Program-made: the position numbers and the translations under genes
Shown: positions 7,719 through 29,896 of the stretch, piece by piece
How positions within the stretch are numbered: the first letter of the stretch is position 1
Layout of the letters: every line of letters starts with the position of its first letter
Origin: a virus
Taxonomy: Duplodnaviria > Heunggongvirae > Uroviricota > Caudoviricetes
Direction: 5' to 3' (one strand)
DNA length: 64,000 nt
Virus record (IMG/VR): IMGVR_UViG_3300016476_000987
The notes under the pieces: generated by a model
The model's database searches: none
Told to the model about the DNA's origin: nothing
The model's input: only the letters and a program-made list of their open reading frames with translations

Positions 7719-7736
7719 GAGTCCTATAAGTATCAT

Positions 7737-7793: not shown

Positions 7794-7848
7794 TTATTCT
7801 TGCCTCCCATTAATTTTGTAACTCCAATTAATAAAAATACACTCTATT

Positions 7849-9753: not shown

Positions 9754-9947
9754 TGGCAAAGAAAGATCTAATAGAGAACGTTGATTATCATGTAGATGAG
9801 AGGGGGAACATAGTTTTCTCCTCTCTCTTTCTCTTAGAAAGAGGCTACTGTTGTGGAAATAAATGCCGGAACTGTCCTTATTCAAAACCTGTGAAAAAAG
9901 GAAATACGGTTATTGACGAACATTTCTTACATTTGAAAAAACAATAA
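9753..9947 (+). CDS. small Cys-rich protein (DUF5522-like, ERGYCCGNxCRxCPY)
   Basis: Motif LLERGYCCGNKCRNCPY. Start moved to the ATG overlapping the RNR stop (TAATG); the track start at 9720 would lie inside nrdJ. Confidence 0.6.
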   Translation: MAKKDLIENVDYHVDERGNIVFSSLFLLERGYCCGNKCRNCPYSKPVKKGNTVIDEHFLHLKKQ

Positions 9948-9981
9948 ATATATTTATATAAAATTTTTAAATTAAAACTTA

Positions 9982-10641
9982 ATGGAAAAAGTAAAAGCCT
10001 TTATAGTAAATAGGAATCTATTAACTACATTAACTAATACAGTTGAATTTCTTAAAAAAGAATCTAGAGTTGATATTATTATATTCGATCAACAATCTAC
10101 CTATCCCCCTTTATTAGACTATTATAAAAATAGTGGGGTTTCTGTTGTTTTTTCTAATGATAACGACGGTCCTTATAATGTATGGAAAGGCCAATTAAAT
10201 CCTTATTTTAATGATTCTCCTTATATTGTAACAGATTCGGATTGTTTGTATGATACAGTTCCAGACGATTGGTTTGATAAAATGTTAGAAGCTTTGAATA
10301 ATAATCCTGTGCTCAAAGTAGGGTTTTCTTTAGAAATAAATGATTTACCAGATACATACATGGGAAATTCAGCTAGAGGATGGGAAACGGGATATTGGCA
10401 TAGTAAGAATCAATATGGTTGGCAATCTCCTATAGATACAACCTTTGCTTTATATAAGCCACATTCAAGTCATGATATTAATCCTGCGATAAGATTAGAT
10501 AGGCCTTATTGCATAAAACACGTACCTTGGTATTTGACAAAAGAGAACATTACAGAAGAGTGGTTATATTATTTAGAGCATGCGTCCAGCGCTTCTTCAT
10601 GGGGATCAAAACTAAAAAGATTAATTGAAAATGAACAATAA
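9982..10641 (+). CDS. putative nucleotide-diphospho-sugar transferase (GT-A-like)
   Basis: N-terminal beta-alpha pattern AFIVNRNLL..IIIFDQQS and a DxD-like VTDSDC. This is weak, motif-level evidence only. Confidence 0.35.
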   Translation: MEKVKAFIVNRNLLTTLTNTVEFLKKESRVDIIIFDQQSTYPPLLDYYKNSGVSVVFSNDNDGPYNVWKGQLNPYFNDSPYIVTDSDCLYDTVPDDWFDKMLEALNNNPVLKVGFSLEINDLPDTYMGNSARGWETGYWHSKNQYGWQSPIDTTFALYKPHSSHDINPAIRLDRPYCIKHVPWYLTKENITEEWLYYLEHASSASSWGSKLKRLIENEQ

Positions 10642-10713
10642 AAAAATGATGATAATCTTTTTAAGTAAACCCATCTATTGACTAGCATTTATTACATTTA
10701 AAAGTAATTATTT

Positions 10714-11295
10714 ATGAATTACATAGGAGACATTTCAAAAAATGATTTTATAGTGCTGAAGCAAGCAGCGGAAATGTATAAAAACATATTAGAATTTGGA
10801 GTAGGCGCTAGCACTCAAGTTATATTGAATTATACTTCCGGTAATTTTTTATCAATTGATACATCATCAGAATGGGTAGATCTTACAAAAAAAAATTTGA
10901 GCTATCTTAATATAAACAAGCCTATAAACATGATGATGTACCATGAGTTTAAACCTTCATTAGACGATAGTTACGATTTTGTATTTAATGATGGAGTCGA
11001 TGAACTTAGATTAGAGTTTGGACTATCTATATTTCCATACATAAAAATTGGAGGCATAATAGCTTATCATGATACAAGGAGAAATAAAGATATACTAAAC
11101 GTAACAAGTCTTATAAATAAATACCATAATGAAATTGATCTTATTGAAGTAAATAAATATGGTTCTAATATTACAGTAATTAGAAAAAAGAAAGAGGAGC
11201 CTTACGAAGATTGGAACATTGCTGAAGGTAAGACTTATTTGAAAAAAGGAGGGTATATATTCAAAGACACTATTCCACCTCCTCATATGGCATAA
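10714..11295 (+). CDS. class I SAM-dependent methyltransferase-like protein
   Basis: Motif I-like ILEFGVGASTQVIL, followed by acidic FVFNDG and IIAYHD. Confidence 0.5.
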   Translation: MNYIGDISKNDFIVLKQAAEMYKNILEFGVGASTQVILNYTSGNFLSIDTSSEWVDLTKKNLSYLNINKPINMMMYHEFKPSLDDSYDFVFNDGVDELRLEFGLSIFPYIKIGGIIAYHDTRRNKDILNVTSLINKYHNEIDLIEVNKYGSNITVIRKKKEEPYEDWNIAEGKTYLKKGGYIFKDTIPPPHMA

Positions 11296-11333
11296 ATTGC
11301 TAAATATTCCTTACATTTGAAAAAACAATAATT

Positions 11334-11522
11334 ATGGATTGGTTACATTTTTGCTTATTTGCCCTATTGCTAGTTTCTGTAGGAGTGTTATTTTATTTCA
11401 ATAGCAGGCAAAATAAAATAAATACTGCTCTTTCTACATTTACTACCATCGCTAGTTTAGCTTTTGCAGAGGTGAAAAAAGAAATAGACGAACTTAAAGA
11501 AAAACTTGAAAAAAAACAGTAA
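11334..11522 (+). CDS. small membrane protein
   Basis: One hydrophobic helix (FCLFALLLVSVGVLFYF) followed by a charged coiled tail. Confidence 0.5.
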   Translation: MDWLHFCLFALLLVSVGVLFYFNSRQNKINTALSTFTTIASLAFAEVKKEIDELKEKLEKKQ

Positions 11523-11524
11523 CT

Positions 11525-11767
11525 ATGCAAGCAGGATCTTTAGTTTTATGCATTCAGGGATATCCTGGCCTTTTAGAAGAAGGGCAAATTTATACCGTTG
11601 ATTCTTTGGAAGAGCATGAGAGAACTAAAACTATAGGAGTATGGTTGTATGAAGTATCTCCTCCCCCTCCGCATCTAGGATTTTCCGTTCATCGATTTAT
11701 TGAAATTCAAGAACCTTTAGACGTTAACTCCTTAGTAAAAGATGTTTTATATGAAAGTAAAAATTAA
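11525..11767 (+). CDS. hypothetical protein
   Basis: 80-aa ORF starting 3 nt after the upstream stop. Confidence 0.5.
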   Translation: MQAGSLVLCIQGYPGLLEEGQIYTVDSLEEHERTKTIGVWLYEVSPPPPHLGFSVHRFIEIQEPLDVNSLVKDVLYESKN

Positions 11768-12176
11768 AAAACTACATCCTAACGCAGTAATTCCTAAATA
11801 CGCAAAGGAAGGAGATGCAGGACTAGACTTAGTAGCTACTGAGGTTTATGAAGACTCTGAGGATCGAATTACTTATGGAACTGGCGTAGCTATAGAAATC
11901 CCCGAAGCATATTTAGGTCTCCTCATGCCTAGATCTTCTGTGAGAAACTATGATCTTATTCTATCAAACTCTGTTGGACTTTCGGATAGCGGATATCGGG
12001 GGGAGATTATGGCTACTTTTAAAAAGACAAAAGGATTCTACAGCAAAGCGTATTTTCCAGGAGAGCGTATTGTTCAATTAGTTATACTACCTTACCCCTA
12101 TATTTCTTTTGAGGAAGTGGAAGAACTGTCTGATTCTGAGAGGGGAGCCACAGGGTTTGGTAGCTCAGGTAAATAA
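11751..12176 (+). CDS. dut: dUTP diphosphatase
   Basis: Motifs AGLDL, PRSS, GLSDSGYRGEI and ERGATGFGSSG. An alternative start exists at 11742. Confidence 0.92.
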   Translation: MKVKIKKLHPNAVIPKYAKEGDAGLDLVATEVYEDSEDRITYGTGVAIEIPEAYLGLLMPRSSVRNYDLILSNSVGLSDSGYRGEIMATFKKTKGFYSKAYFPGERIVQLVILPYPYISFEEVEELSDSERGATGFGSSGK

Positions 12177-12181
12177 TAGTT

Positions 12182-14514: not shown

Positions 14515-15279
14515 ATGAATAATAACTACGTTGTTTACCAACATAGAAGATTAGATAATAATCAAATTTTTTATGTTGGACAAGGATTGTTAAGCAGAGC
14601 TTATCAAAATCAAGTGAACAGAAGAAACACTAATTGGATAAAAGTAGTCAAAGAAGCAGGAGGATTTATAGTAGATATATTAAAAGAAGGACTTAGTAAA
14701 GAGGAGTCTTTGATTATAGAATCTGAGTATATAAAAAAATATGGAACTATAAAACATAACACTGGAATTCTTGTAAATGAAAGACTGTCCGGGAGTAGAG
14801 GAGTAAAAAGTGGCTACACCCACTCTGAAGAAAAAAGAAAAGAGATAAGCGAAAAAACAAAAAAAGCCATGCAAAATCCGGAAACAAAAAAAAGATTAAT
14901 AGAAAGTCATTTAAAATATTGGGAAAATTCGGAAAATCATATAAAAGCTTCTATTTCTACTAAAGGAGTTCATGCTGGCAGTAAACACCCAATGTACGGT
15001 AAAACTCATTCGGAAGAGTCTAAAGATAAAATGTCAAAAGCTAAATTAGGAAAAAAAAGATCTTTAGAAGCAATTGAAAAATTAAAAAAAAGAATTCCTT
15101 GGAATAAAGGACTTAAAGGAGCATATAAACAAAAACAAGAGACTATAGAAAAAAGAAAAAATACTTTAAAAAATAGACCCTATACTCCTCAAAAAAAAGT
15201 AGAATGTCCTTATTGTAAATTAATAGGCGGTTTTACTAATATGAAAAGATATCACTTTGATAATTGCAAAAACAAATAA
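14515..15279 (+). CDS. GIY-YIG homing endonuclease with NUMOD3-like repeats
   Basis: N-terminal YVVYQH..IFYVGQG and a conserved Glu region ESLIIESEYI. Repeated GxTHSEExK segments (GYTHSEEKRKEISEK, GKTHSEESKDKMSKAK). C-terminal CPYC...FDNC. Lies directly after polA. Confidence 0.75.
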   Translation: MNNNYVVYQHRRLDNNQIFYVGQGLLSRAYQNQVNRRNTNWIKVVKEAGGFIVDILKEGLSKEESLIIESEYIKKYGTIKHNTGILVNERLSGSRGVKSGYTHSEEKRKEISEKTKKAMQNPETKKRLIESHLKYWENSENHIKASISTKGVHAGSKHPMYGKTHSEESKDKMSKAKLGKKRSLEAIEKLKKRIPWNKGLKGAYKQKQETIEKRKNTLKNRPYTPQKKVECPYCKLIGGFTNMKRYHFDNCKNK

Positions 15280-15289
15280 ACAAAAGATA

Positions 15290-15775
15290 ATGGTTATTAA
15301 AAAAAACACACATGCTCCGCTTAGGTTTCCTAAATTGCTTATTGGGGAAGTCCTTATTAGCGCTGTTGTAGAATTTACAGACTCTTGTAGGTACGATGTA
15401 GGAGAAGATCAACTAGATGTCAATAAACTATTTGGTATCGGATACTTCCCTACTCATCATACTAATAGCGTAAGATTTGGATGGAGATACGATAAAAATG
15501 TAGATAAGATAGAAATCTTAGCCTACTATTATTTAAATGGTGATAGGCATTTTGATACTCTGACTTGGGCAGATATTGGAGTTTCTTATAGATGCGTTAT
15601 CTTTATTGAGCCCAATAATCATACTTTGTGTATGGGTAAAAAAGATATAGGAAGTTTGTTTGAAGTAGAACATTCCGTTCCTGTTAAAAGAAAATCTGTA
15701 GGGTACCTTCTTAGGCCTTACTTTGGCGGAAACAAAAAAGCACCTCACAACATAGAAATTAAAATTGAGATATGA
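15290..15775 (+). CDS. hypothetical protein
   Basis: Start moved to MVIKKNTH to avoid overlap with the endonuclease gene. No motif recognised. Confidence 0.5.
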   Translation: MVIKKNTHAPLRFPKLLIGEVLISAVVEFTDSCRYDVGEDQLDVNKLFGIGYFPTHHTNSVRFGWRYDKNVDKIEILAYYYLNGDRHFDTLTWADIGVSYRCVIFIEPNNHTLCMGKKDIGSLFEVEHSVPVKRKSVGYLLRPYFGGNKKAPHNIEIKIEI

Positions 15776-16068
15776 GAAAAGTAGTAGCATTACACGACAA
15801 AGTTGTTCTTAAAAAAATTGAAGACGAAGACAAAGTAGTAGGAGGGATTATCATTCCCGATACCGGTAAAGAAAAATCAAACTATTTTGAGGTAGTTGAT
15901 ATAGGCCCAGGAATGTACCATCCTCACGTAATTAAAGAATATTATCCTATGGAGACATGTGTAGGAGACGTTGTTATTGTCCCTAAAGCAGTAGTAACGC
16001 AGATAATTGTAGACGGGGATGAATATTATGTTTGTAGAGAAGTAGAAATTCTAGCAATAATTAAGTGA
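15772..16068 (+). CDS. groES: co-chaperonin GroES-like
   Basis: VLKKIEDEDKVVGGIIIPDTGKEKSNYFEVVDIGPG matches the Cpn10 mobile-loop region. The ATGA overlap with the upstream gene and its position upstream of groEL support the call. Confidence 0.8.
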   Translation: MRKVVALHDKVVLKKIEDEDKVVGGIIIPDTGKEKSNYFEVVDIGPGMYHPHVIKEYYPMETCVGDVVIVPKAVVTQIIVDGDEYYVCREVEILAIIK

Positions 16069-16075
16069 TATAGAT

Positions 16076-16285
16076 ATGGACAAACATTTTGCTGTATTAG
16101 TAGATGTTCCTACAAAAGGAGAAATGATGTTGTTTCTTGGTTACTATGAAGATAATAAAGAGCAAATGGATGAAAGATATGAAGAGGTATCTATGGATCT
16201 TCCATTAACTCCTATCCTTGATAAATTGAAATCACACAAGTATAAATTGTTTAAACAAAAAGAAATAAATAATGATCAAGACTGA
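16076..16285 (+). CDS. hypothetical protein
   Basis: 69-aa acidic ORF between groES and groEL, overlapping the groEL start by 14 nt. Confidence 0.45.
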   Translation: MDKHFAVLVDVPTKGEMMLFLGYYEDNKEQMDERYEEVSMDLPLTPILDKLKSHKYKLFKQKEINNDQD

Positions 16286-17945
16286 ATTTGGAAATGAGCT
16301 AAAAAGTAAACTGCTCAGCGGTATTTGTAAATTGAATGATAGCGTATCCTCTACTCTCGGTCCTGGAGGTAGAAACGTTATTATCCGGGATGAGGATGGC
16401 AACATTAAAGTAACGAAAGACGGAGTTACTGTAGCCAGGGCTTTCTCTAAGCTTGAGGATGATATTGAAGACATCGGTGCTCAGATGATCCGTAAAGTGT
16501 CTGAGAAGTCTGCTGATAAAGCAGGAGACGGTACTACAACCTCTACTCTCCTGGCTACTGTAATGGTAGAAGAAGGAATCAAAGTTATCACTCAGGGATG
16601 TAATGCCGTAGAAGTTAAAAAGGGTATTGACATTGGAGTAAAAAAAGTAGTAAGCCTTCTTAAAGAACTCTCAAGAGAAATCTCTTCTGATGATCAAATC
16701 AAACAAGTAGCTACTATCTCTGCCAATAACGATGTTGAAGTAGGAAATCTTATTGCAACAGCGATTGATAAAGTAGGTACTGACGGTGTTGTAGCTATTG
16801 AAGAATCTAAGACTGGTGAGACTTCTCTGGAAGTTGTTGAGGGTATGATGTTTGATCGTGGGTACAAATCCCCTTATTTTGTCACCAATCAGAATACTAT
16901 GCAAGCCGTTCTGGAAAAGCCACTTGTATTTCTGTATGATGGCAAAATAATGAACTCTAGCCAAGCAGTACCAGTTCTACAAGCAGCTGCTATGGAAAAT
17001 AGGCCCCTTCTTATTGTTGCGGAAGAAATCGAAGGAGAAGCCCTGGCTCTTCTTGTAGTAAATAAAGCTAATCAAACGATTAAGGTCTGTGCAGTAAAAG
17101 CTCCAGACTTTGGAGATCGTAGGACTGCTATTCTGGAGGACATCGCTATTCTAACCGGTGGAACTGTCCTGTCTCCTAACAAAGGTCACAAGCTTGATAA
17201 AATGAAGCCGACCGAGTTCAAAGCACATTTCGGAGAAGCAAGGGTAGTTAATGTTACTTCTAAAGACACTACAATCGTAGATGGAAAAGGATCAGCAGAG
17301 GCTATTGAGCAAAGACTGAACGAGATTAAGACTCAAATTGATATTGCTAAGTCTAATTTTGAGATTGAGAAACTTCAAGAAAGGTTGTCTAAACTTACTG
17401 GAGGAGTAGCTATCGTTAACGTAGGAGGTCTTAGTGAAGTGGAAATGAAGGAAAAGAAAGATCGTGTAGAAGATGCTCTTTACGCTACCAAAGCTGCGTT
17501 GGATCAAGGTATTGTCCCAGGAGGAGGAATGGCCCTTGTTATGTGCTCTTATAGGCTTCTTAAAGAAGCTATTACTGAGAACTCAGATCAACAAATTGGA
17601 GTTAGTATTGTATATAAATCATTAGTAGCTCCATTCAGAAAGATTATGCAAAATGCAGGGATTGAAGATTATCATTCTATGCTTAGTGAAATTCGTGATC
17701 TTAGAGTCGAGCATGAAAAGAAGCATCCCGAAGATCCTATGTTTCTCTGGTATGGATACAATGTGAAACTTGGAAATTTTGTTAACATGTATAAGGAAGG
17801 GATTATAGATCCGACTAAAGTAACTAGGACCGCCATAGAGAACGCAGCTAGCGTAGCCGGTACAATCCTTACTACAGAATCAGTAATCTTCTCAGTAGGA
17901 GAAAAAAAGAAAGAAGAAATTGATTACAGCCAATTCATGCAATAA
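16272..17945 (+). CDS. groEL: chaperonin GroEL (Cpn60)
   Basis: Full-length Cpn60 signature: [76 protein letters not shown]. The Gly-Met-rich C-terminal tail is absent. Confidence 0.97.
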
Positions 17946-19364: not shown

Positions 19365-19562
19365 ATGCGAAGCGAAAACTTAAAACTTACTTCCGTAAAA
19401 ATACATAAGGATTTAGCTGACAACTTTAAAGTTGAAAGTGCGTTGACTGGTTTTTCGTTGCAAAAACTGGTCAATCGGAGTTTGCACCTGTTTATGACAG
19501 ATCCAGACTTCAAAGTAAAACTTATGTCTTATAGCACACTCTCACCGAGCGGAAGTCTTTAA
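19365..19562 (+). CDS. putative ribbon-helix-helix DNA-binding protein
   Basis: 65 aa with a beta-strand-like LTSVKIHKDL followed by two helices (ADNFKVESALTG, SLQKLVNRSLHLF). First gene of the sugar island. Confidence 0.4.
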   Translation: MRSENLKLTSVKIHKDLADNFKVESALTGFSLQKLVNRSLHLFMTDPDFKVKLMSYSTLSPSGSL

Positions 19563-19574
19563 AAGAAATGATTT

Positions 19575-21014
19575 ATGAAAGAAGGTTATATTAAAAAAGA
19601 AGATAGAAAAAAGATTTTATTAATCTCAGACGACATTAGATTTTTTTCCGGTATCGCCACAGTGTCCAGGGAAATTGTTATTGGAACAGCACATCATTAT
19701 AACTATGTATGTATCTGTGCTGCTCTGCAACATCCGGACAAAGGCAAAAGAATGGACCTTAGCGAATCCACAAACCAAATAACTGGTATTACAGATTCAG
19801 ATGTTACTATTTACCCTTATGATGGTTATGGGGATGCCGATTTTGTAAGAAATTTGATAAAATACGAGAAGCCTGATGCTCTGTTTTTTGTAACAGATCC
19901 CAGGTATTACACTTGGCTTTTTGAAATAGAGAATGAAATTAGGAAAAAAATCCCAATGATTTATTTGCAGATTTGGGATTGCGAACCGGCTCCTCTTTAT
20001 AATAGAGAGTTCTATCGTAGTTGCGATGCCTTATTAGCTATTTCTAAACAAACAGAAATACTTAATAAAGTAGTGTTAGGTAAATACCAAGAAGATTGTC
20101 TTATTAAATATGTTCCTCATGGTATTAACAGTAACATGTTTTTTAAGATAGACTCAGGACATGAAAAGTATGAAGAGCTACAAAACTTTAGAAAAGATTT
20201 ATTCGGTAAAAAAGATTTTCAATTTGTAGTCCTTTTTAACAGTAGAAACATTCGTAGAAAATCTCTCCCGGATACTATTGTAGCTTTTAAATTATTACTG
20301 GACTCTATGTCTCCTGAAGAAGCGGATAAGTGCTGCTTAGTGCTTCATACACATCAAGTAGATGAAAATGGAACTGATCTACCAGCAGTAATTGAAGTAT
20401 TTTTAGGGGACAGGAAAGACCAAGTAATCTTTTCTAACCCTGGATTAGACACCGGTAGAATGAACCTTCTGTATAATCTTGCAGATGTTACAGTACTAAT
20501 AAGTAGTAACGAAGGATGGGGCCTCTCTTTAACAGAGAGCCTAATGTCTGGCACCATGATTATTGCGAACGTAACAGGAGGCATGCAAGATCAAATGAGG
20601 TTTGAAGACGAGAATGGAGATTGGATAGAGTTCACAGAGTCTTTCTGTTCTAATCATTTTGGAAAGTATAAGAATTGTGGAGAATGGGCTATCCCTGTAT
20701 TTCCTTCTAATATTAGTATCCAAGGATCTGTGCCTACTCCTTACATCGCTGACGACAGAGCAGACTTTAGAGACGTTGCTAATGCTATGAAGCAAGTATA
20801 CGGTATGTCTAAAGAAGAAAGGATTAGCAGAGGAATGAAAGGACGAGAGTGGGTAACTTCAGACGAGGCTATGATGACTGCTGATAATATGTGTAAAAAC
20901 GTCATAGAAGCAGTAGATCAAACTATAGAGGAGTTCAGCCCTAGAAAAAAATATTATATCATAAACACAAATGATAGAGATAAGAAAACTCTTGCTTTCC
21001 CTCTTTCTTTATAA
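19575..21014 (+). CDS. GT-B glycosyltransferase (GT4-like)
   Basis: E-x7-E region SSNEGWGLSLTESLMSGTMIIA. Confidence 0.7.
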   Translation: MKEGYIKKEDRKKILLISDDIRFFSGIATVSREIVIGTAHHYNYVCICAALQHPDKGKRMDLSESTNQITGITDSDVTIYPYDGYGDADFVRNLIKYEKPDALFFVTDPRYYTWLFEIENEIRKKIPMIYLQIWDCEPAPLYNREFYRSCDALLAISKQTEILNKVVLGKYQEDCLIKYVPHGINSNMFFKIDSGHEKYEELQNFRKDLFGKKDFQFVVLFNSRNIRRKSLPDTIVAFKLLLDSMSPEEADKCCLVLHTHQVDENGTDLPAVIEVFLGDRKDQVIFSNPGLDTGRMNLLYNLADVTVLISSNEGWGLSLTESLMSGTMIIANVTGGMQDQMRFEDENGDWIEFTESFCSNHFGKYKNCGEWAIPVFPSNISIQGSVPTPYIADDRADFRDVANAMKQVYGMSKEERISRGMKGREWVTSDEAMMTADNMCKNVIEAVDQTIEEFSPRKKYYIINTNDRDKKTLAFPLSL

Positions 21015-21022
21015 TATTAGTT

Positions 21023-21991
21023 ATGATAAAAAGAGCATTAATTACCGGGATCAACGGTATGGATGGTAGTCATTTAGCGGATTTACTATTGACTAAAGGA
21101 TATGTTGTGTATGGTATGGAAAGACGAAAGTCTGTAAAACAAAATACTAACACAAAACATCTAGAAGGGAAAGTTAACTTTTTAGTTGGAGATCTAACAG
21201 ATCAAAATTCTTTAGTAAGAGCTTTAGTAGAATCTGATCCTCATGAAGTGTATAATTTAGCTGCACAGTCTTTTGTAGGAGAGAGTTGGAATACCCCAGA
21301 GCAAACTTCTGATGTAACTGGTTTAGGAGTTCTTAGGGTGTTAGAGGCAATCAGAATGTATGATAAATACAATAAGATTAGATTCTATCAAGCCTCTTCT
21401 TCTGAGATGTTTGGTAGAATGGTAGAGAATCCGGCTACCGAACAAACTCCTTTTTATCCTAGAAGTCCTTATGGAGTAGCCAAGCTATATGGACATTGGA
21501 TAACTAAGAATTATAGAGAGTCTTATAACATGTTCACTTGCAGCGGTATTCTTTTCAATCATGAATCTGAAAGAAGAGGATTAGAATTTGTAACCAGGAA
21601 AATAACTAACGGAGTAGCTAAAATACAAAAAGGATTGGCCGACAGTATTTCTTTGGGAAATCTAGATGCAAAAAGAGATTGGGGATATGCTCCTGATTAT
21701 GTAGAAGCTATGTGGGCCATGTTACAAAGAGATACTCCGGATGATTATGTTATATCTACAGGAAATACTTACAGTGTAAGAGACTTTCTAGACGTTGCTT
21801 TTCAAACAGTAGGAATTTCTAATTGGGAACCCTATGTTAAAATAGACCCTAAGTTTTTTAGACCGGCAGAAGTAGATGTCCTAAGAGGACATTCAGGTAA
21901 AGCTAGAGCCTCTTTAGGTTGGTACCCTAAAACTTCTTTTGAAGATATGGTAAAGATTATGGTTAATAATGATATTAAATTACTAAACTAA
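21023..21991 (+). CDS. gmd: GDP-mannose 4,6-dehydratase
   Basis: ALITGINGMDGSHLADLLLTKGY, YQASSSEMFG, SPYGVAKLYGHWITKNYRESY, GILFNHESERRG. Confidence 0.92.
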   Translation: MIKRALITGINGMDGSHLADLLLTKGYVVYGMERRKSVKQNTNTKHLEGKVNFLVGDLTDQNSLVRALVESDPHEVYNLAAQSFVGESWNTPEQTSDVTGLGVLRVLEAIRMYDKYNKIRFYQASSSEMFGRMVENPATEQTPFYPRSPYGVAKLYGHWITKNYRESYNMFTCSGILFNHESERRGLEFVTRKITNGVAKIQKGLADSISLGNLDAKRDWGYAPDYVEAMWAMLQRDTPDDYVISTGNTYSVRDFLDVAFQTVGISNWEPYVKIDPKFFRPAEVDVLRGHSGKARASLGWYPKTSFEDMVKIMVNNDIKLLN

Positions 21992-21992
21992 T

Positions 21993-23303
21993 ATGAATAA
22001 GTTATCGTGTGTAGTAGCCAGTCCAATTGATACATTTAGCGGATATGGTGTTATGGCTAGAAATTTTGCAAAAGCTCTTCTTAAAATAAGGAAAGACGAA
22101 TGGGATATTAAATTCTTGTCTTTGAGATGGGGAATGACTCCTTTTGGAGCATTAGATGAATCTGATCCTTCAGATGCAGAGATTATGAGTCTAATTATCC
22201 CAGACGGACAACTAAAATATAAACCAGATATTTGGTTTCAGATTAGCGTGTCTGAAGAGTTTACTCCTGTAGGAACGGTAAATATTGGGTACTCTTGTTT
22301 AGTAGAGACTACCATTCTTCCTGGGGAAATGCTTGAAGGGCTCAATAGAATGAATTTTAATCTTGTTTCTTGTGAGCATGCAAAAACTATTGCTACATCT
22401 ACTTCATGGGATAAAGTAGACCAAAATCAGAAAAAAATAGGAGAGTTAGTACTAGAAAAGCCAGTAGAAACTTTATTTATTGGGCTTGATACAGATAAGT
22501 TTAAGAAGCCTAAATCGGTATCTTTTGATCTTTCTAACATTAAAGAATCTTTTTGTTTTTTATCAGTAGGGCATATGCTTCCCGGAGCTGTAGAGTTAGA
22601 AGATCGAAAAATGATGGGAAGATTAATTAAAACTTTCTTAGAGACTTTTAAAGATAAAAAAAACAAACCTGCTCTTATACTTAAAACAGCAACCTCAGGT
22701 TATTCTTATGTAGACCAAGAAAGGACGTTATCTATTATAGACAAAATTAAAAGTACTGTATCAGGAAAAGACCTCCCAAATATTTACCTAATTCATGGAG
22801 AATTAAGTGAACAGGAACTTTGTGAGCTATATTCTCATGATAAAGTAAAAGCTTTTGTACTAACCGGCAACGAAGGTTTTGGTCTACCTTACATAGAATT
22901 TTCAGCAGTATCAGGAAAACCTTTGATTGTGTCTCCCTGGAGCGGTCATTTAGATTTTTTAGATAAAGAATTTAACACTTTTGTATTTGGGGCTATAGAG
23001 CAAATTCACCCAGCAGCAGCAAATAAGTATTTACTAAGAGAGGCTGCGTGGTATAAACCTGATGTAAAAGATCTTTCGGACAAACTTGTAGACATGCATA
23101 AGAATTATTCTAAGTATGTAGACAACGGAAAAAGACAAGGATTTAAATCTAGAACAGAATTTACTATTGATAAGATGGCTGAGAAATTAGACGATATTCT
23201 TAAAACTAATATTCCTCCTATTAGCAAACCCGTTCCCTTATCTTTACCTAAACTAGTTGATATAAAAAAGCCTAACTTTGACTATCTAGAAGAATCTAAA
23301 TAA
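21993..23303 (+). CDS. GT-B glycosyltransferase-like protein
   Basis: TGNEGFGLPYIEFSAVSGKPLIVS (E-x7-E-like motif). Confidence 0.6.
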   Translation: MNKLSCVVASPIDTFSGYGVMARNFAKALLKIRKDEWDIKFLSLRWGMTPFGALDESDPSDAEIMSLIIPDGQLKYKPDIWFQISVSEEFTPVGTVNIGYSCLVETTILPGEMLEGLNRMNFNLVSCEHAKTIATSTSWDKVDQNQKKIGELVLEKPVETLFIGLDTDKFKKPKSVSFDLSNIKESFCFLSVGHMLPGAVELEDRKMMGRLIKTFLETFKDKKNKPALILKTATSGYSYVDQERTLSIIDKIKSTVSGKDLPNIYLIHGELSEQELCELYSHDKVKAFVLTGNEGFGLPYIEFSAVSGKPLIVSPWSGHLDFLDKEFNTFVFGAIEQIHPAAANKYLLREAAWYKPDVKDLSDKLVDMHKNYSKYVDNGKRQGFKSRTEFTIDKMAEKLDDILKTNIPPISKPVPLSLPKLVDIKKPNFDYLEESK

Positions 23304-23310
23304 ATAAAGT

Positions 23311-23511
23311 ATGAACTCTAAAGAATTTGTAATTTGGTTAAAAGGATTTGTAGCCGCAGCAAATGAATATAATATAACTCCTAAGCAATTTGAACAAATT
23401 GTAGAGCAGTTGAGTAAAGTATCGGAAGGTACTAATGTATACTACGGAACTACTATTACAGGAGTTTCAAGCACTTCTCCAGTGTCAAAAACAAACACAT
23501 TAAACGGATAA
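23311..23511 (+). CDS. hypothetical protein
   Basis: 66-aa ORF in the operon string. Confidence 0.45.
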   Translation: MNSKEFVIWLKGFVAAANEYNITPKQFEQIVEQLSKVSEGTNVYYGTTITGVSSTSPVSKTNTLNG

Positions 23512-23513
23512 TA

Positions 23514-23957
23514 ATGTCAGATCAATTAACTACTTGTAGAAAATGCGGATCTCCTCTATGTTATGAAAGACATACAGAGAGTATCATCTTCTGGGACTGT
23601 TTACAATGTGGCTATAGCACTAACACCCTTCTTTTAGTAAACACAGAAGCCGTGTTCTCTTATGAATCTATGGTACCTAGACTATTTCAGGATATTAAGT
23701 ATGTAGACAGTGATGGGCTAGTTTGGTTTCCTACCACTGTAACTAAAGAAGGAGTAGGGATTATTTTTCCAGATGGAACCAATAAAGATGATTGGAAGTG
23801 GGCAGTAGCTAGACATGTGCCGGTAGAAGAAGCAGAAAAAGAGAGATTTAAAAAGAAAGATGGGACATATCATACCTATAAAACGGATATGAAAAATGTT
23901 CTTCATTTTGATAAAGAGTATTTTTCTAAAGCATTAGAATCGTTAGGATTTATTTAA
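23514..23957 (+). CDS. zinc-ribbon protein
   Basis: CRKCGSPLC...CLQCGYS. Confidence 0.5.
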   Translation: MSDQLTTCRKCGSPLCYERHTESIIFWDCLQCGYSTNTLLLVNTEAVFSYESMVPRLFQDIKYVDSDGLVWFPTTVTKEGVGIIFPDGTNKDDWKWAVARHVPVEEAEKERFKKKDGTYHTYKTDMKNVLHFDKEYFSKALESLGFI

Positions 23958-23967
23958 TAAAGTAATT

Positions 23968-24591
23968 ATGGTAAGCGTATCATATTGTATTACAGTTCAT
24001 AATGAAGGCTCTATGTATTTAGAGCCTCTTTTTCAAAAGCTATTTAAGTATTTACAACCGGAAGATGAGATTGTAGTAGTAGATGATATGTCTGATGAAG
24101 AGACTACTATCGCTACTCTTTCTAAATACGAAGATAGAATCAATTATTATAAGCATAAGTTTGAAGGAAATTTTGCTAATCATAAGAACTTTGCAAAATC
24201 AAAATGTACTAAGGATTATATATTCTTTATAGATGCTGATGAAAATATGCACGATAATCTTCTGCTTACTTTAAAAGAAGTGCTTTACAATAATCCTACC
24301 GTAGAAATGTACATGGTACCAAGAATTAATATAGTTCCTGGATTGACTGAGGAACATAAGAAAGCTTGGGGGTGGGTAACTAATGAAAAAGGGTGGATAA
24401 TGTTTCCGGATTATCAGACTCGAATTATTAAAAACTTGTCTAGTATTAACTGGGAAGGGAAAGTACATGAAAGATTGTCCGGACACACCGTTCATACAGC
24501 ATTGCCTCACGAAACAGAAGACTATTGTCTATTGCATATCAAAGATATAAAAAGACAAGAAGCGCAAAATAATCTATATAACAGTTTATGA
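23968..24591 (+). CDS. family 2 glycosyltransferase (GT-A)
   Basis: VSYCITVHNE, VVVDDMSDEET and FFIDADE (DxD). Confidence 0.75.
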   Translation: MVSVSYCITVHNEGSMYLEPLFQKLFKYLQPEDEIVVVDDMSDEETTIATLSKYEDRINYYKHKFEGNFANHKNFAKSKCTKDYIFFIDADENMHDNLLLTLKEVLYNNPTVEMYMVPRINIVPGLTEEHKKAWGWVTNEKGWIMFPDYQTRIIKNLSSINWEGKVHERLSGHTVHTALPHETEDYCLLHIKDIKRQEAQNNLYNSL

Positions 24592-25502
24592 AAATCGTAT
24601 TTCATAGCAATCAACTAGGAATCAGAGGCACAGAAGTAGCTTTATACGATTATGCGCACTATAATGAATCTATACTGGGAAATATTTCTTATATAGCTGC
24701 TCCGGTGTACTCAGACATGCAGGCGCATGAAAAATTTAAAAATAGATTTAAAGATAGAGTACTATTATACGGTACTTTAGATGAACTGCGTTCTTATAAT
24801 TTTGACGTAGCTTATTTTATAAAGGCAGGATATAATGATGGAAAATTAATTGAAGGAGCTAAAAACATAGTTCATTATGTGTTTGATGGATCTGCTCCTC
24901 ATGGAGATGCTTATGTTGGAGTAAGTGAGTGGTTATCTAAAAAATACAATACAGAGTTTCTCCCCCACATAGTATCCCTCCCAGAAGTAGATTATTCTTA
25001 TAGAGAATACTTAGGTATCTCAAAAGAAGATATTGTGTTTGGTAGATATGGAGGACTAGATCAATTTGATGTTTCTTACTTGAGAGAATCAGTAGAAGCT
25101 GCTGCCGATACAGGTATCAAGTTTCTTTTTATGAACACTTCTGTTTTTACAATAGATCATCCTAATATCATATACTTAACTCCTTCTTATGAATTAGAAA
25201 CTAAGTCTGCTTTTATAAACAGTTGCGATGCTATGCTTCATGGTAGAACAGAAGGAGAAACCTTTGGTTTATCTATTTGTGAGTTCTTGTATTTTAATAA
25301 ACCGGTAGTAACTAACATAATTTGTAGAGATAGAAATCACATAGAATTATTAAAAGACAAAGGATTTTATTACACAAATGCAAATGAGTTATATTCTATA
25401 TTAGTGAATTTTACTAAAAAAGATTATAGCGTAAAACAGCTAGTACAAAAGTATAGCCCAGAAGAAGTTATTAATAAATTTAAAAATTTATATAATGGAT
25501 AG
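24588..25502 (+). CDS. GT-B glycosyltransferase-like protein
   Basis: GRTEGETFGLSICEFLYFNKPVVT. Confidence 0.55.
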   Translation: MKIVFHSNQLGIRGTEVALYDYAHYNESILGNISYIAAPVYSDMQAHEKFKNRFKDRVLLYGTLDELRSYNFDVAYFIKAGYNDGKLIEGAKNIVHYVFDGSAPHGDAYVGVSEWLSKKYNTEFLPHIVSLPEVDYSYREYLGISKEDIVFGRYGGLDQFDVSYLRESVEAAADTGIKFLFMNTSVFTIDHPNIIYLTPSYELETKSAFINSCDAMLHGRTEGETFGLSICEFLYFNKPVVTNIICRDRNHIELLKDKGFYYTNANELYSILVNFTKKDYSVKQLVQKYSPEEVINKFKNLYNG

Positions 25503-26178
25503 AGTATTTCAGAATTATCATAGAGTATATAATTATTTTTCTCCAAAATCTTATTTAGATATAGGGGCTTGCAAAGGACATCACATTCCATACGTTTTAC
25601 AAATCTTAAAAGATTTGAATAAAATAGAATTAATAGAAGCTTGTAGATATCATGAATATGATTTAAAATTATTACAAAACAGTTTTTTTACAAAAAATAT
25701 TTCTTATAAAATAGAAGTACTGTCTGATTGTGTAAAGGAAGTAGACTTCTACTTATCTGGCCTAGAGGAACAAGGCTCCGGTGGGACCGGTAACTCTTAT
25801 TACAAAGAGGATACTCCTCATTATGTAAACTGCGTAATAGAAAAAAGAATAACTAATACTTTAGACATATTGTATAAATACGAAGAGCCTTTTGATCTAA
25901 TTAAAATGGATACTCAAGGTAGTGAGTTGGATATAATAAAAGGAGGATTAAACATAATATCTAATGCTAAAGGTATTATATTAGAAGAAAACGTAGTTAC
26001 TTTTAATACCGGCGCTCCTTTGCATTATGAAGTAAAGCCTTATATGGAATCTATTGGATTTGTATTATGCGAAATATTAGATGAAAAAAACTATCCTATT
26101 AATAATAGTAAAGGAGTGCTTACTCCTCATCATGAAATAGACACGCTTTATATTAGAAAAGACGTGCTTAATCTTTAA
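25495..26178 (+). CDS. FkbM-family methyltransferase
   Basis: LDIGACKGHH and IKMDTQGSELDIIKGG. Confidence 0.7.
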   Translation: MDRVFQNYHRVYNYFSPKSYLDIGACKGHHIPYVLQILKDLNKIELIEACRYHEYDLKLLQNSFFTKNISYKIEVLSDCVKEVDFYLSGLEEQGSGGTGNSYYKEDTPHYVNCVIEKRITNTLDILYKYEEPFDLIKMDTQGSELDIIKGGLNIISNAKGIILEENVVTFNTGAPLHYEVKPYMESIGFVLCEILDEKNYPINNSKGVLTPHHEIDTLYIRKDVLNL

Positions 26179-26186
26179 TATATACT

Positions 26187-27065
26187 ATGAAAATATGTTT
26201 TGTTTATGATTATGAATCTGAGCTTTTGTCTCCTGCTCAATCTTTAATAAACGAATTTATTAGACGGAGTTGTTTAGTATCTAGAGTACATCTATCAAAC
26301 ACTTTAAATTTTCACAAAGCATTAATAGCAAACTACTACGATATTATCATTATCCTGGACAAAACTGGTACTGATATTCCACAAATTATTCACAATCAGA
26401 TTTCTAAGGACATTTTTAAAATCAGAGATTGTGGGGGCACTCCTCAAAAATATGAAGCACATTTACCGCATATAAAAAATTATAATATGTTGCTGACTTC
26501 TGACTATGTCTCCTGTCAGAAGTATATGGCTGAAGGAATCCCCTGTTTATGGTTTAATCATTTTGCGGATACTGATATTCATAAAATATACGAGGGAGAG
26601 GATAGAATGCCTCCTGTACGCTCTACAATGGGCCAAGAAGGCTCTAAAATAGTCGATGCGCTGTCTACCCTTATGCCAAATAAATTTGTCAATAAAAGCG
26701 ATCTAATAGGCTCAGAATACGGGCGCTTTTTAGGGCAAGGAAAAATAGTAGTTCATCACAGTAGGAACGAACAGATCAGCCATAAAATTTTTGAAGCAAT
26801 GGCCTGTAAAAAACTAGTCATTACTGACCGTCTTCCTGAGCATACCCGGATAGCGGACTTATTTGAAGAAGGAAAAGACATCGTTTTTTATGATGATTTT
26901 TCTGATCTCATTTCAAAAATAAACTACTATCTTTGCCCTGAGGGGGAAAGGGGGAGAGAGGATATAGCTATTAGTAGCTATACTAAAGTAATAAATAGTC
27001 ATACTGAGTATAATAGAGTAAATAGTATTATAAGTAGTTATAATAATTGGAAAAATAATCTATAG
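26187..27065 (+). CDS. CgeB-like glycosyltransferase (GT-B C-terminal domain)
   Basis: KIFEAMACKKLVITDRLPE. Confidence 0.5.
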   Translation: MKICFVYDYESELLSPAQSLINEFIRRSCLVSRVHLSNTLNFHKALIANYYDIIIILDKTGTDIPQIIHNQISKDIFKIRDCGGTPQKYEAHLPHIKNYNMLLTSDYVSCQKYMAEGIPCLWFNHFADTDIHKIYEGEDRMPPVRSTMGQEGSKIVDALSTLMPNKFVNKSDLIGSEYGRFLGQGKIVVHHSRNEQISHKIFEAMACKKLVITDRLPEHTRIADLFEEGKDIVFYDDFSDLISKINYYLCPEGERGREDIAISSYTKVINSHTEYNRVNSIISSYNNWKNNL

Positions 27066-27072
27066 TATTATT

Positions 27073-27909
27073 ATGAAAACATTTGATTGTTTTACTTTTT
27101 TTAATGAAATAGATCTACTAAAGATAAGATTAGAGCTTCTTAAAGATGTAGTAGACTATCATGTCATTGTAGAAAGTAATCTAACGTTTAGTGGTTTAAA
27201 TAAAAACTACATATTAGAAGATCACTGGAATGATTTTATAGATTGGAAGAATAAGTTAATTTATATAAAAATAGAACAGTCTAAAGAGGGATTAGAATTT
27301 AGAAAAGTAAATAGCTACTCTCCAGATAACGGAAGTTGGATATTAGAATATCAGCAAAGAAATAGTTTACAGAACGTGTCAGATATAGTAAATGACAATG
27401 ACGTTTTATTGATAGGAGACGTAGACGAAATTCCTGATCCGGAAGCTGTATTAGCTTTAAAAGAATATTTAAAGTCTGGGTACCCTATAGCATTGTCTAT
27501 GCTGTTTCATTACTACTATATGAATTGCCAGAATGTAGGATATGAAAGATATTGGAACGGTACTGTAGGATGTAAGGGAGTTGATTTTAAAAATAATACT
27601 CCTCAACAATTTAGAGATAAAAGGAACAACTATCAAAGATTCTCTAACGGAGGATATCATTTTTCTTTCTTAGGAGGAGTAGAAAAGATTAGAACTAAGA
27701 TCCAGTCTTTTGCTCATACTGAGTTTAATAGAGAAGACATTCTATCAGAAGAAAATATAGTAGAATCTATAGAGAAAGGTAAAGACGTATTCAACAGACC
27801 TGGGGTTTCTTATGAGTTTGTAGATCCTTATCAATATCCGCAAAGAATAAGAGAGTTAATGTTTAAGTATCCTCATTTAATGAAATATGAAAATAAAAGA
27901 TCTAGTTAA
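27073..27909 (+). CDS. family 17 glycosyltransferase (GnT-III-like)
   Basis: FDCFTFFNEIDLLKIRLELLKDVVDYHVIVESNLTFSG and GGYHFSFLGG. Confidence 0.8.
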   Translation: MKTFDCFTFFNEIDLLKIRLELLKDVVDYHVIVESNLTFSGLNKNYILEDHWNDFIDWKNKLIYIKIEQSKEGLEFRKVNSYSPDNGSWILEYQQRNSLQNVSDIVNDNDVLLIGDVDEIPDPEAVLALKEYLKSGYPIALSMLFHYYYMNCQNVGYERYWNGTVGCKGVDFKNNTPQQFRDKRNNYQRFSNGGYHFSFLGGVEKIRTKIQSFAHTEFNREDILSEENIVESIEKGKDVFNRPGVSYEFVDPYQYPQRIRELMFKYPHLMKYENKRSS

Positions 27910-28720
27910 TAAATCAGTATTTGGTACAATAGCAACTATAAGAGACGAGTTTTCGATAAGGAAACTCGATCTTTTTTTACAGTATAACCTACCATTCATT
28001 TTAGAATTTAAAGATAGAGTAGTGATAGCTGTAAATAAAATGGAGCACACTCCGGAACAAGTAGTAAAACAATACAAAGAAGTATTAGAATGTAATATTC
28101 CTGGCTGCGTAATTATAGAAACAGATAACCGGGGCCATATGTTTGGGACTATAGATTTAGAAGAGTCTGTATTAAAATATACAAAGAGACTTTTCCCAGA
28201 AGCAGAATATTTATTTAAGTCGATGGATGATGTTATTACTTACCCATCTTTATTAGAAGTAGAGGTAGATCCGGCAGACTTCTATTATATCCCAGGATTT
28301 AGTTACGAATCTATTTTAAAAGCTGGTTCTAAAGAAAAATTAAGATCTATATATGAAACCTTTGAGAGCGGTTTTTGGACTCCTCAAACAACTTTTTTTA
28401 TTCTCCGTATCAATAACATTGATCTGCTTTATGGCGACGATATTGACTATAAACATAGTGTATATCTCGAAGCTAAAAGATCCCTACCTGAAATAAAGCC
28501 TTGGGAGATTCCCTTTGATATTAAATTTGACTGTGAGACTCACTTAGGTAGAACTGTAAAAGACATGGCTAAGTACTGTCTAATCAAGGACAAGTTCAAA
28601 GATCTACTAGATTTAGTAGAAACTATTCCTATAGGGGATCCGTCTCATAAGAATGTATTCTTTAAAGACATTGGAGTTTGTCATTATCATTATTATGAAT
28701 CTCATGTATTCGATCTGTAA
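27887..28720 (+). CDS. hypothetical protein (last gene of sugar island?)
   Basis: 277-aa ORF overlapping the GT17 gene end by 23 nt. Confidence 0.55.
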   Translation: MKIKDLVNKSVFGTIATIRDEFSIRKLDLFLQYNLPFILEFKDRVVIAVNKMEHTPEQVVKQYKEVLECNIPGCVIIETDNRGHMFGTIDLEESVLKYTKRLFPEAEYLFKSMDDVITYPSLLEVEVDPADFYYIPGFSYESILKAGSKEKLRSIYETFESGFWTPQTTFFILRINNIDLLYGDDIDYKHSVYLEAKRSLPEIKPWEIPFDIKFDCETHLGRTVKDMAKYCLIKDKFKDLLDLVETIPIGDPSHKNVFFKDIGVCHYHYYESHVFDL

Positions 28721-28745: not shown

Positions 28746-29534
28746 ATGGAAACTTTAATGCAATTATTACTAGAAGCGCCAATTACTCCTGATCAGGTAA
28801 ATAAATTCTTATTGCCTAGAGATAACCAGGTTAGTATCTTCTATGATAAGAAATGGATTTCTGTAGAACCGGTAAGGGTACAGGAAATAGACGGGGAAGA
28901 TTACTTAATTGCATTTGAAGTATCAGACCCTCAAGCTAAGACTCCAGTTAGATACGAACTTAAAAAAATAACCAATTGGAACGTACTTAGTAAAAAATCT
29001 GCTGATAGAGCTAAGAAAGAAAAACAGAAAGGAGTAGTTAAAATAAAATCTGAGAAAAATAAAATAGTAGATTCTATAGTAAATAAAAGATATGTGAAGT
29101 TCTATTACAAGGGAGATAAGGAAAATAAACCGGGATATAGAACAAGCGTTCAGCCAGTATGTTACGGGGTGACCAATGGTAAAAAGTATCTTAGGGCATG
29201 GCAAGACGAAGGAGAGACTTATAGAGGTAAACTACCTAAAGACAACAAAGAGTATAGGCCTATGCCTGGCTGGAGGTTTTTTAGAGAAGATAGAATAAGC
29301 ATGAACACTTATCAAGAAACAGGAAAAAATTTTACTGTTCCTCCTAGAGCAGACTATAATCCTACCGGCGATAAACATATAAATGATGTTATAGCTATTG
29401 CTAAGTTTGATACTGGTAACAAACCTCCTCCTGTTCCGGAGGAACCAAAGGCACCTGCTCCAACAAAAGGAAAGAAGAAGTTACAAGAAAATAAAATAAT
29501 AAGTGCTATCTTAGAGGCTGTGAGAATTTTATAA
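28746..29534 (+). CDS. protein with two WYL-like beta-barrel repeats and a Pro/Lys-rich tail
   Basis: KKYLRAWQDEG...PGWRFFREDRI resembles the WYL hallmark (YL.A...R.FR.DRI). The N-terminal half repeats the pattern (DYLIAFEV...VRYELKKI). No HTH is seen. Confidence 0.4.
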   Translation: METLMQLLLEAPITPDQVNKFLLPRDNQVSIFYDKKWISVEPVRVQEIDGEDYLIAFEVSDPQAKTPVRYELKKITNWNVLSKKSADRAKKEKQKGVVKIKSEKNKIVDSIVNKRYVKFYYKGDKENKPGYRTSVQPVCYGVTNGKKYLRAWQDEGETYRGKLPKDNKEYRPMPGWRFFREDRISMNTYQETGKNFTVPPRADYNPTGDKHINDVIAIAKFDTGNKPPPVPEEPKAPAPTKGKKKLQENKIISAILEAVRIL

Positions 29535-29545
29535 AACTATGTAGT

Positions 29546-29896
29546 ATGAGAAGGAAGAACCCAAAAAGAACTGTCCCAACTTTAAACTATTATGTAAATT
29601 CTTTTAGTGATTACCAGACCATAAGTACGATGCAAGACACTAGGAAGTTAGTATTTAACAATCTTATAGAAGCTATAGAAGATAGCATGAGAAGCAAAAA
29701 AAACGAAGCTTCTATTTTTATGTTGGATTATGATCATTATGTAGCATTAAATAAAAGAAGTTGGAAAAAAAGCTTAAATACTGCTATTGAGTTTTTTTCT
29801 TCTGAGGGAGTAGAAGAGTATGAGATTTGTAAAAAGTGCGTAGATTTGATTAATAAAATAGACTCTGAAGAAAAAACAAAGGTTGAAGATGAGTAA
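29546..29896 (+). CDS. hypothetical protein
   Basis: 116-aa ORF. Confidence 0.5.
   Translation: MRRKNPKRTVPTLNYYVNSFSDYQTISTMQDTRKLVFNNLIEAIEDSMRSKKNEASIFMLDYDHYVALNKRSWKKSLNTAIEFFSSEGVEEYEICKKCVDLINKIDSEEKTKVEDE

Follow-up and report, generated by a model that had tools for sequence, protein, structure and literature searches.

Predicted glycan-assembly genes of a very large phage lineage: a conserved core and a hypervariable cassette

The "lipopolysaccharide (LPS) clusters" of cyanophages were described in 2005 (PMC1079782), and ever since it has been asked why lytic phages need so many sugar genes. Large lytic cyanomyoviruses encode 13–24 comparable genes, P-SSM2 having 24 of them, and S-SCSM1 carries a GDP-mannose 4,6-dehydratase (GMD), a GDP-fucose synthase and fucosyltransferases (PMC1079782, PMC9602691). 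Chloroviruses encode a GMD, the family 4 glycosyltransferase (GT4) A546L/B736L, a GT17 in some strains and a methyltransferase domain, and their capsid glycan, with fucose, rhamnose and O-methyl sugars, combines a conserved inner part with strain-variable decoration (PMC5408694, PMC7826918). Mycobacteriophages use their own glycosyltransferases (GTs) to decorate the C-termini of capsid and tail tube proteins in the cytoplasm, according to the citation of Freeman 2023 in PMC12619734. The subject of this analysis is a block of genes at positions 19365–28720 of a 64,000-nucleotide stretch of phage DNA (Caudoviricetes; IMG/VR record IMGVR_UViG_3300016476_000987), called the window throughout. The block encodes seven putative GTs, a GMD and one FkbM methyltransferase, and comparison with related phages points to a conserved core combined with a variable part.

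Each described system shares a portion of this design. Like the block, the chlorovirus system (PBCV-1, NY-2A) is virus-encoded and cytoplasmic and has neither the host endoplasmic reticulum or Golgi nor lipid-carrier genes behind it (PMC5408694, PMC7826918). It differs in having a eukaryotic host, a giant virus, scattered genes and an acceptor that is known, the major capsid protein, and its sequence similarity to the block is at the family level only. The mycobacteriophage system is alike in that a tailed phage supplies its own GTs; in the lineage of the window, virion glycosylation is a prediction. Mycobacteriophage GT clusters contain fewer genes and are not known to include a GMD. The LPS clusters of the cyanophages P-SSM2, S-SCSM1 and S-SKS1 hold GMDs that are 52–54% identical to that of the window. 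There, however, the enzyme is usually paired with a GDP-fucose synthase, whereas the window GMD stands alone, and a tblastn search of those cyanophage records with the core GT4 returned no match. Finally, phage DNA-glycosylation clusters resemble the block in combining GTs of the GT-A and GT-B folds, and sometimes sugar-nucleotide enzymes, near replication genes. These clusters need an adjacent cytosine methylase together with a 5mYOX dioxygenase, or a ThyA-like hydroxylase, neither of which was seen in the window, and their glycans consist of one to three sugars.

The first-pass annotation of the window had described the block as one contiguous island of sugar activation and glycosyl transfer. 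Its twelve open reading frames (ORFs) do exist on the plus strand at the positions it gave, tightly packed, with gaps of at most 25 bp or overlaps of a few bases. By gene order and conservation, however, the block is composed of two layers and not of a single island: about half of it is a conserved core, the hallmark module of a very large phage lineage, and the rest is variable. The comparison set consisted of 81 loci, namely 80 contigs fetched from IMG/VR and the cultured Flavobacterium phage vB_FspM_immuto (82 sequences counting the window). On every contig of sufficient length the genes follow one order: nuclease, small protein, GT4, GT-B, zinc-ribbon protein, GT2. The 65-amino-acid (aa) small protein lies directly 5' of the GT4 in 76 of the 81 loci, with 36–73% identity; the 436-aa GT-B was likewise found in 76, and the GT2 in 52, many of those contigs ending early. 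The 479-aa GT4 is 56–72% identical across the 81 loci, a conservation equal to that of PolA and GroEL. The core, being universal and on a par with the DNA polymerase in conservation, probably has a function that the phage itself cannot do without. Homologues of the GT4 are encoded on at least 598 contigs of IMG/VR, and 8000 were scored among metagenome proteins. A megablast comparison of the block with 50,697 phage records gave no match, and relatives are detectable at the protein level only. The predicted genes are listed in Table 1.

Table 1. Predicted genes of the block, of its 3' extension and of a separate tentative pair, in window coordinates
Feature	Position	Strand	Match or basis
Core-associated small protein, 65 aa	19365..19562	+	Strand-helix-helix pattern like that of ribbon-helix-helix (RHH) proteins
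Core GT4 (GT-B fold, retaining family), 479 aa, lineage hallmark	19575..21014	+	PF00534
GMD, short bacterial type	21023..21991	+	PF16363, TIGR01472
Core GT-B glycosyltransferase, 436 aa	21993..23303	+	phrog_2170
Protein of 66 aa with conserved N-terminus and hypervariable tail, candidate acceptor (speculative)	23311..23511	+	
Core zinc-ribbon protein, 147 aa	23514..23957	+	Core member
Core GT2 (GT-A fold), 207 aa	23968..24591	+	PF00535, 61.7 bits
Probable GT-B/GT4-like transferase, 304 aa, first gene of the cassette	24588..25502	+	Glycos_transf_1, E 0.006
FkbM-family S-adenosylmethionine (SAM) methyltransferase	25495..26178	+	PF05050, 39.8 bits; TIGR01444, 39.2 bits (cutoff 37.7)
CgeB-like GT, GT-B C-terminal domain	26187..27065	+	PF13524, 68.3 bits (cutoff 25)
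GT17-family glycosyltransferase	27073..27909	+	PF04724, E 4e-30, 105.5 bits
GT-A-fold protein, seventh putative GT	27887..28720	+	Predicted model
Two further genes of the variable segment: 262-aa WYL-domain protein and 116-aa protein	28746..29896	+	
Tentative GT-A-like protein outside the block	9982..10641	+	GT2, 19.3 bits (under cutoff 23.3)
Tentative class I SAM methyltransferase outside the block	10714..11295	+	Methyltransf_24, 18.1 bits (under cutoff 26.3)

Most family labels given to these genes at first pass withstood searches with hidden Markov models (HMMs): the GT4, GMD, GT2, FkbM, CgeB-like and GT17 proteins score above their cutoffs or with clear E-values. The core GT4 reaches 33.6 bits with Glycos_transf_1 (cutoff 26.4) and E 1e-18 with phrog_2170, and its best match in the PDB is B736L of chlorovirus NY-2A (E 1e-11). 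The 436-aa GT-B has no Pfam match and falls in the same glycosyltransferase family, phrog_2170 (E 6e-17), as the GT4, of which it is a distant paralogue-like relative; its PDB profile matches, to WbaZ-1 and B736L, are weak. The core GT2 matches a GtrB-like PHROG weakly (E 7.5e-5) and, like the GT-A-fold protein at the end of the block, is weakly similar to the peptide glycosyltransferase SunS. The zinc-ribbon protein was modelled with confidence, no structural neighbour was recovered, and its homologues are all stand-alone proteins. A 4132-aa metagenomic protein, P0286, scores 134 bits against it, the best stretch covering residues 95–124 only, and could represent either a giant protein with repeats or an artefact of assembly. 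The small protein that opens the core had been labelled an RHH-like regulator. No HMM supports this label, as the protein has no Pfam, PHROG or NCBIfam match and its sole, weak PDB match is the RHH protein SvtR (E 0.68), but the conserved strand "LTSVKV" and the two helix-like segments after it would suit such a fold.

The closest isolate is immuto (Immutovirus, NC_055915), a 160-kb myovirus whose PolA and GroEL are 53% and 54% identical to those of the window. Its GT cluster (gp182–gp169) is homologous to and syntenic with that of the window, in the order PD-(D/E)XK nuclease, core, cassette and then matching backbone genes. Core identities are 45% for the small protein, 60% for the GT4 (480 aa in immuto), 47% for the 436-aa GT-B, 39% for the zinc-ribbon protein (152 aa) and 42% for the 207-aa GT2. 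The immuto cassette, in contrast, contains aminotransferases, an acetyltransferase-like "pilin glycosylation protein", an epimerase, a methyltransferase and two other GTs; no family is common to it and the cassette of the window (Jaccard 0), and immuto encodes no GMD orthologue. More distant isolates retain parts of the core. Microcystis phage Mel-JY01 encodes the triad of GT4, GT-B and GT2 with 41%, 36% and 37% identity, again 3' of a PD-(D/E)XK nuclease, and Rhodothermus phage RM378 encodes a GT4 with 28% identity and GT2-like genes, its GT-B match being weak. The Mel-JY01 GT4 is annotated as two ORFs of 573 and 909 bp (12007–13498 of the fetched locus) that match residues 4–173 and 144–463 of the window GT4, a sign of a split gene, a frameshift or an error in the sequence. 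The immuto GT cluster is already annotated in GenBank, and no study of it or of Mel-JY01 was found in the literature searched.

A hypervariable cassette, judged by gene content, follows the core GT2. The variable part of the window consists of the inserted GMD gene and the stretch from 24588 to about 29896; the last GT ends at 28720, where the first-pass annotation had closed the block, but the variable segment goes on beyond it. The conserved backbone restarts with the gene at 29883–30314. The variable stretch has a G+C content of 31%, the lowest of the region, which elsewhere lies at 33–40%. The 636 ORFs of the compared islands fall into 147 clusters, 79 of them singletons. When the 37 loci with at least 6 kb of cassette are compared, 34 have distinct gene sets and the mean pairwise Jaccard index is 0.10; even the nearest relative, L003, has only a quarter of its families in common with the window. 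Cassettes of the relatives contain FkbM and other SAM methyltransferases, GT2 and GT10 enzymes, epimerases and dehydratases of the short-chain dehydrogenase/reductase (SDR) type, pyridoxal phosphate (PLP) enzymes, acyltransferases and nucleotidyltransferases. FkbM is their commonest family, with 10 of 143 cluster representatives, and the FkbM enzyme of the window is a probable sugar O-methyltransferase.

The four putative GTs of the window cassette differ in how readily they can be classified. The 304-aa protein shows only its weak Glycos_transf_1 match together with the GT4-like motif "EGETFGLSICEF...KPVV", and its gene occurs in 6 of the 81 comparison loci (7 counting the window), as does that of the CgeB-like protein. 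The GT17 gene occurs in 4 (5 counting the window). The protein encoded at 27887–28720, which had been left as unknown, belongs to no Pfam, PHROG or NCBIfam family; its model shows a GT-A Rossmann-like fold with an acidic DxD-type motif. It brings the number of GTs in the block to seven, the upper of the two figures proposed at first pass, or to eight with the tentative GT-A-like protein at 9982. Directly 3' of it, the 262-aa protein (28746–29534, plus strand) matches the WYL domain (E 4e-7) and has a Lys/Pro-rich C-terminus. This protein and the 116-aa protein that follows are singletons among the 636 island proteins and show no link to glycan machinery; the former might act as a ligand sensor in regulation or be the product of an unrelated accessory gene.

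The GMD scores 430 bits with PF16363 and, over its full length, 430.2 with the equivalog model TIGR01472 (cutoff 415), and its best PDB match is the GMD of P. aeruginosa (1rpn, E 1e-115). Its gene sits between the two core GT-B genes, an insertion site that only L003 shares among the fetched loci, and in both sequences it lacks a partner gene. Orthologues with at least 45% identity occur in about 17 loci, where the usual neighbours are a GDP-L-fucose-synthase-like SDR (NF047922, up to 389 bits), an RfbH/ColD-like PLP enzyme (457 bits, over its cutoff), or both. These neighbourhoods suggest routes of the GDP-fucose and GDP-colitose types, a reading that rests on established pathway knowledge. 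As had been reported at first pass, neither a second SDR nor an aminotransferase occurs anywhere in the 64-kb window, and because no partner is found there, the second step must come from the host, from the genome outside the window or from the GMD itself. The GMD of PBCV-1 is bifunctional and that of ATCV-1 is not (PMC5408694), so bifunctionality cannot be predicted from sequence.

Only 5 of the 636 island proteins carry a single hydrophobic segment and none is a multi-pass membrane protein, which means that flippase, polymerase and initiating transferase are absent. Wzx, Wzy, an ABC exporter and GtrA/B were not found in the 81 islands. No phosphoglycosyl transferase of the WbaP/WecA type occurs in the window island or in the 80 related islands, nor among the 25 families listed of 84. 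The seroconverting gtrABC type was not recovered either, as the GtrA flippase, the membrane-bound GtrB and GtrC and any transmembrane proteins are missing. An autonomous O-antigen or capsule locus was rejected, since there are no membrane proteins. In keeping with virion glycosylation, virus-encoded GTs, here seven with a GMD and a methyltransferase, occur without lipid-carrier or export genes, and conserved inner enzymes are combined, at the level of genes only, with strain-variable decorators.

The enzyme families, the gene order, the conservation pattern and the absence of membrane and export genes can be read directly from the compared loci. From them we infer, with moderate confidence, that the block directs the cytoplasmic assembly of a methylated, 6-deoxyhexose-containing glycan on a phage-encoded acceptor, probably a virion protein. 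The 65-aa protein, GT4, GT-B, zinc-ribbon protein and GT2 of the first layer would be inherited vertically in a very large lineage of environmental myoviruses, and would attach and build the inner sugars on a conserved acceptor encoded by the phage. The second layer would be a strain-specific cassette that supplies unusual activated sugars and outer, variable residues. The GMD would convert GDP-mannose to GDP-4-keto-6-deoxymannose, and this intermediate would become a 6-deoxyhexose, presumably L-fucose or D-rhamnose, through a host enzyme, a gene outside the window or the GMD. Four more GTs, the 304-aa GT-B-like, CgeB-like, GT17 and GT-A-fold proteins, would extend the glycan, which the FkbM enzyme would O-methylate. 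The most likely acceptor would be one or more virion proteins, which would receive their sugars either prior to assembly or in its course, on the model of chloroviruses and mycobacteriophages, and variation of the cassette would give related phages different surface glycans. The general proposal of the first-pass annotation, a multi-sugar, methylated glycan with a 6-deoxyhexose, is supported.

Several observations weigh against a virion acceptor. The window contains no virion gene, and the block is situated amid replication genes, not structural ones. The core zinc-ribbon protein yielded no functional clue. Furthermore, soluble GTs without transmembrane segments can act at the membrane on undecaprenyl-linked intermediates, so host lipid carriers and export could still take part. 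Finally, the window is 64 kb of a contig of about 184 kb: because an identical GT4 sequence is present on a metagenomic contig of 183,965 bp, about one third of the genome is in view.

Two other readings place the glycan elsewhere than on a virion protein. In the more conventional of these, the phage GTs and GMD would act on host undecaprenyl-linked O-antigen or capsule intermediates on the inner side of the membrane, the altered polymer would be exported by flippase and ligase of the host, and the changed cell surface would, for example, exclude superinfecting phages or prevent re-adsorption of progeny. This is the classical view of the cyanomyovirus LPS clusters (PMC1079782; PMC9602691). It agrees with the presence of GT4, GT2 and CgeB-like enzymes typical of polysaccharide loci, with the JGI label of the GT4 as "involved in cell wall biosynthesis" and with the fact that peripheral GTs need no transmembrane segment. 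An initiating transferase, flippase, polymerase, ligase or GtrA/B-type gene is nevertheless absent from all 81 islands, and the triad is 36–60% identical in Flavobacterium and Microcystis phages, with a 28% identical GT4 in a Rhodothermus phage; these hosts have different envelope glycans. Conservation of the GT4 on a par with the DNA polymerase would also be unexpected for an enzyme that has to match variable host glycans. The occurrence of the triad in phages with unrelated host envelopes favours a phage-intrinsic acceptor, which accounts for its conservation over two or three host phyla more readily than a host-specific polysaccharide would. Host surface polysaccharide, one of the targets entertained at first pass, is thus disfavoured, and we regard envelope remodelling as unlikely. 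Modification of DNA seems more improbable still. Here the core GTs would glycosylate a hydroxylated base and the cassette would extend and vary the glycan, protecting the genome from restriction enzymes or nucleases. The setting of the block would suit this, as it lies in a module of replication and nucleotide metabolism near PD-(D/E)XK nuclease, PolA, ribonucleotide reductase (RNR), dUTPase and ThyA genes. Phage GT-A and GT-B enzymes are known to place mono- to trisaccharides on 5-hydroxymethylcytosine and poly-arabinose on 5-hydroxycytosine (10.1101/2023.12.21.572611; PMC13326640), while the relative immuto modifies its DNA by another route, through DpdA and preQ0 genes. Yet the window ThyA keeps the Cys nucleophile and, in "PFNIASY", the Asn that specifies uracil, a dUTPase is encoded in the window, and none of the 636 island proteins or window ORFs has a motif of C5 or N6 DNA methylases. 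The known clusters for DNA glycans are small and have the base-hydroxylating enzyme adjacent, and seven GTs with a GMD and sugar O-methylation exceed the DNA glycans described. No source of hydroxylated pyrimidines was found in the window, a weak negative given that no HMM search for dioxygenases was made and two thirds of the genome are out of view. A hydroxymethyl-pyrimidine pathway was rejected, as ThyA looks canonical. This 391-aa protein (41476–42651, plus strand) has canonical catalytic motifs and three large insertions relative to E. coli ThyA, to which, insertions aside, its core is about 50% identical (an approximate figure); immuto encodes a similar long form with 48% identity.

A further possibility is that the acceptor lies within the block itself. 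The 66-aa protein belongs to a family found in 26 of the 82 sequences, always within the core, either between the GT-B and zinc-ribbon genes or just after the latter. Its members, 44–163 aa long, have a conserved N-terminus of about 36 aa ("MTSxEFVIWLKGF...TPKQWD") and a hypervariable tail, between 6 and about 125 aa long, in which Ser, Thr, Gly and Asn abound. Ser and Thr make up 22% of the tails against a background of 11%, and NxS/T sites number 3.0 against 0.74 per 100 aa. Longer members have the motif "WNDKMGxWHYTNYPEGFGYY" in common; examples are L034:3190–3681 and L006:12717–13193, and L034 carries two tandem copies. The N-terminal segment of such a protein would be recognised by the core enzymes and its tail glycosylated, giving a small glycoprotein or glycopeptide that is secreted or attached to the virion. 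Its twofold Ser+Thr and fourfold NxS/T content relative to background and its constant place in the core fit this proposal, as does the weak SunS likeness of the core GT2 and the GT-A-fold protein. On the other hand, members have neither a signal peptide nor a transmembrane segment, phage proteins often end in low-complexity tails, and the family occurs in a minority of the sequences although the core GTs are universal. Not being universal, it cannot be the general or the only acceptor. The 66-aa protein could thus be an acceptor or an adaptor, but its role as the dedicated substrate of the system is a long shot, and a virion protein is preferred as the acceptor.

A GT-A-like protein and a SAM methyltransferase had also been proposed at 9982–11295, apart from the block. 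The proposal has the support of HMM scores that lie below threshold and of motifs visible in the sequence. The former has a "TDSDC" motif of the DxD type (DSD) and one 31%-identical homologue within the cassette of L077; the latter has "LEFGVGAST", which resembles SAM-binding motif I, and Methyltransf_24 proteins make up 6 of the 143 representatives in the relatives' cassettes. PHROG and PDB searches returned no match for the GT-A-like protein and lent the pair no added support. The genes 5' of PolA in the window are those for RNR, the tentative pair and dUTPase, while immuto has in this place (5009–12016 of its locus) the 7-deazaguanine genes QueD/E, FolE, DpdA and QueF. None of the latter was recovered by tblastn with the window ORFs or by Pfam scans of the larger window ORFs.

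The remaining genes place the window firmly in a phage genome. It encodes gp32-like and RecA/UvsX-like proteins, a 5'-3' exonuclease, DnaB helicase, RNR, dUTPase, a family A DNA polymerase, GroES/GroEL, a PD-(D/E)XK nuclease and ThyA. The GroES-like gene (15772–16068) and GroEL (16272–17945; Cpn60, E 3e-65), both on the plus strand, are kept in immuto and many related contigs. Two plus-strand genes probably encode proteins of the homing-endonuclease type: a NUMOD3-motif protein just 3' of PolA (14515–15279) and an HNH-like protein (30304–30999) that has a counterpart in immuto gp164 and, following the first backbone gene, marks the right border of the variable segment. Further downstream, the 184-aa product of 39391–39945 (plus strand) matches Tad3, the Type I Thoeris inhibitor of Pfam (E 1e-32, 112.8 bits), which suggests an anti-Thoeris counter-defence gene, and a 242-aa protein (43672–44400, plus strand) has a response-regulator receiver domain (E 1e-24) unusual in a phage. 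Between 18000 and 31500, promoter-like sites (45 against 56 in shuffled sequences) and terminator-like sites (8 against 6) are uninformative on operon structure.

The block is made up of ordinary enzyme families, and GenBank already contains an annotated homologous cluster from an isolate. The statement that glycan machinery of this scale is typical of giant viruses and not of tailed phages was overstated in view of the immuto cluster, P-SSM2, S-SCSM1 and the 248 phage records that encode a GMD-like protein. Three features seem to lack a description in the literature searched: the arrangement in two layers, its distribution among hundreds of uncultured phages and two or three phyla of hosts, and the unannotated families in the island, namely the GT-A-fold protein, the zinc-ribbon protein and the small protein with a Ser/Thr-rich tail. 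The cultured member immuto, which grows on Flavobacterium sp. LMO8, makes the question testable. Should virions prove to be glycosylated, the hypervariable cassette would mean that phage surfaces in lakes and seas differ in a serotype-like manner, with a bearing on adsorption, on grazing or immune recognition and on the stickiness of particles. A broader and distinctly tentative proposal concerns this very large, mostly uncultured aquatic myovirus lineage as a whole, which numbers at least 598 IMG/VR contigs and has relatives that infect Flavobacterium, Microcystis and probably Rhodothermus. Its members would possess a self-contained system for glycosylating proteins, in which an invariant inner core (GT4, GT-B, GT2 and the lineage-specific zinc-ribbon protein) is joined to a hypervariable, O-antigen-like outer cassette, and each strain would show its own "serotype" of methylated deoxy-sugar glycan on virions or on a small, dedicated carrier whose Ser/Thr-rich tail is hypervariable. 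If true, phage surfaces would have a general layer of diversity, so far unrecognised, on which diversifying selection acts.

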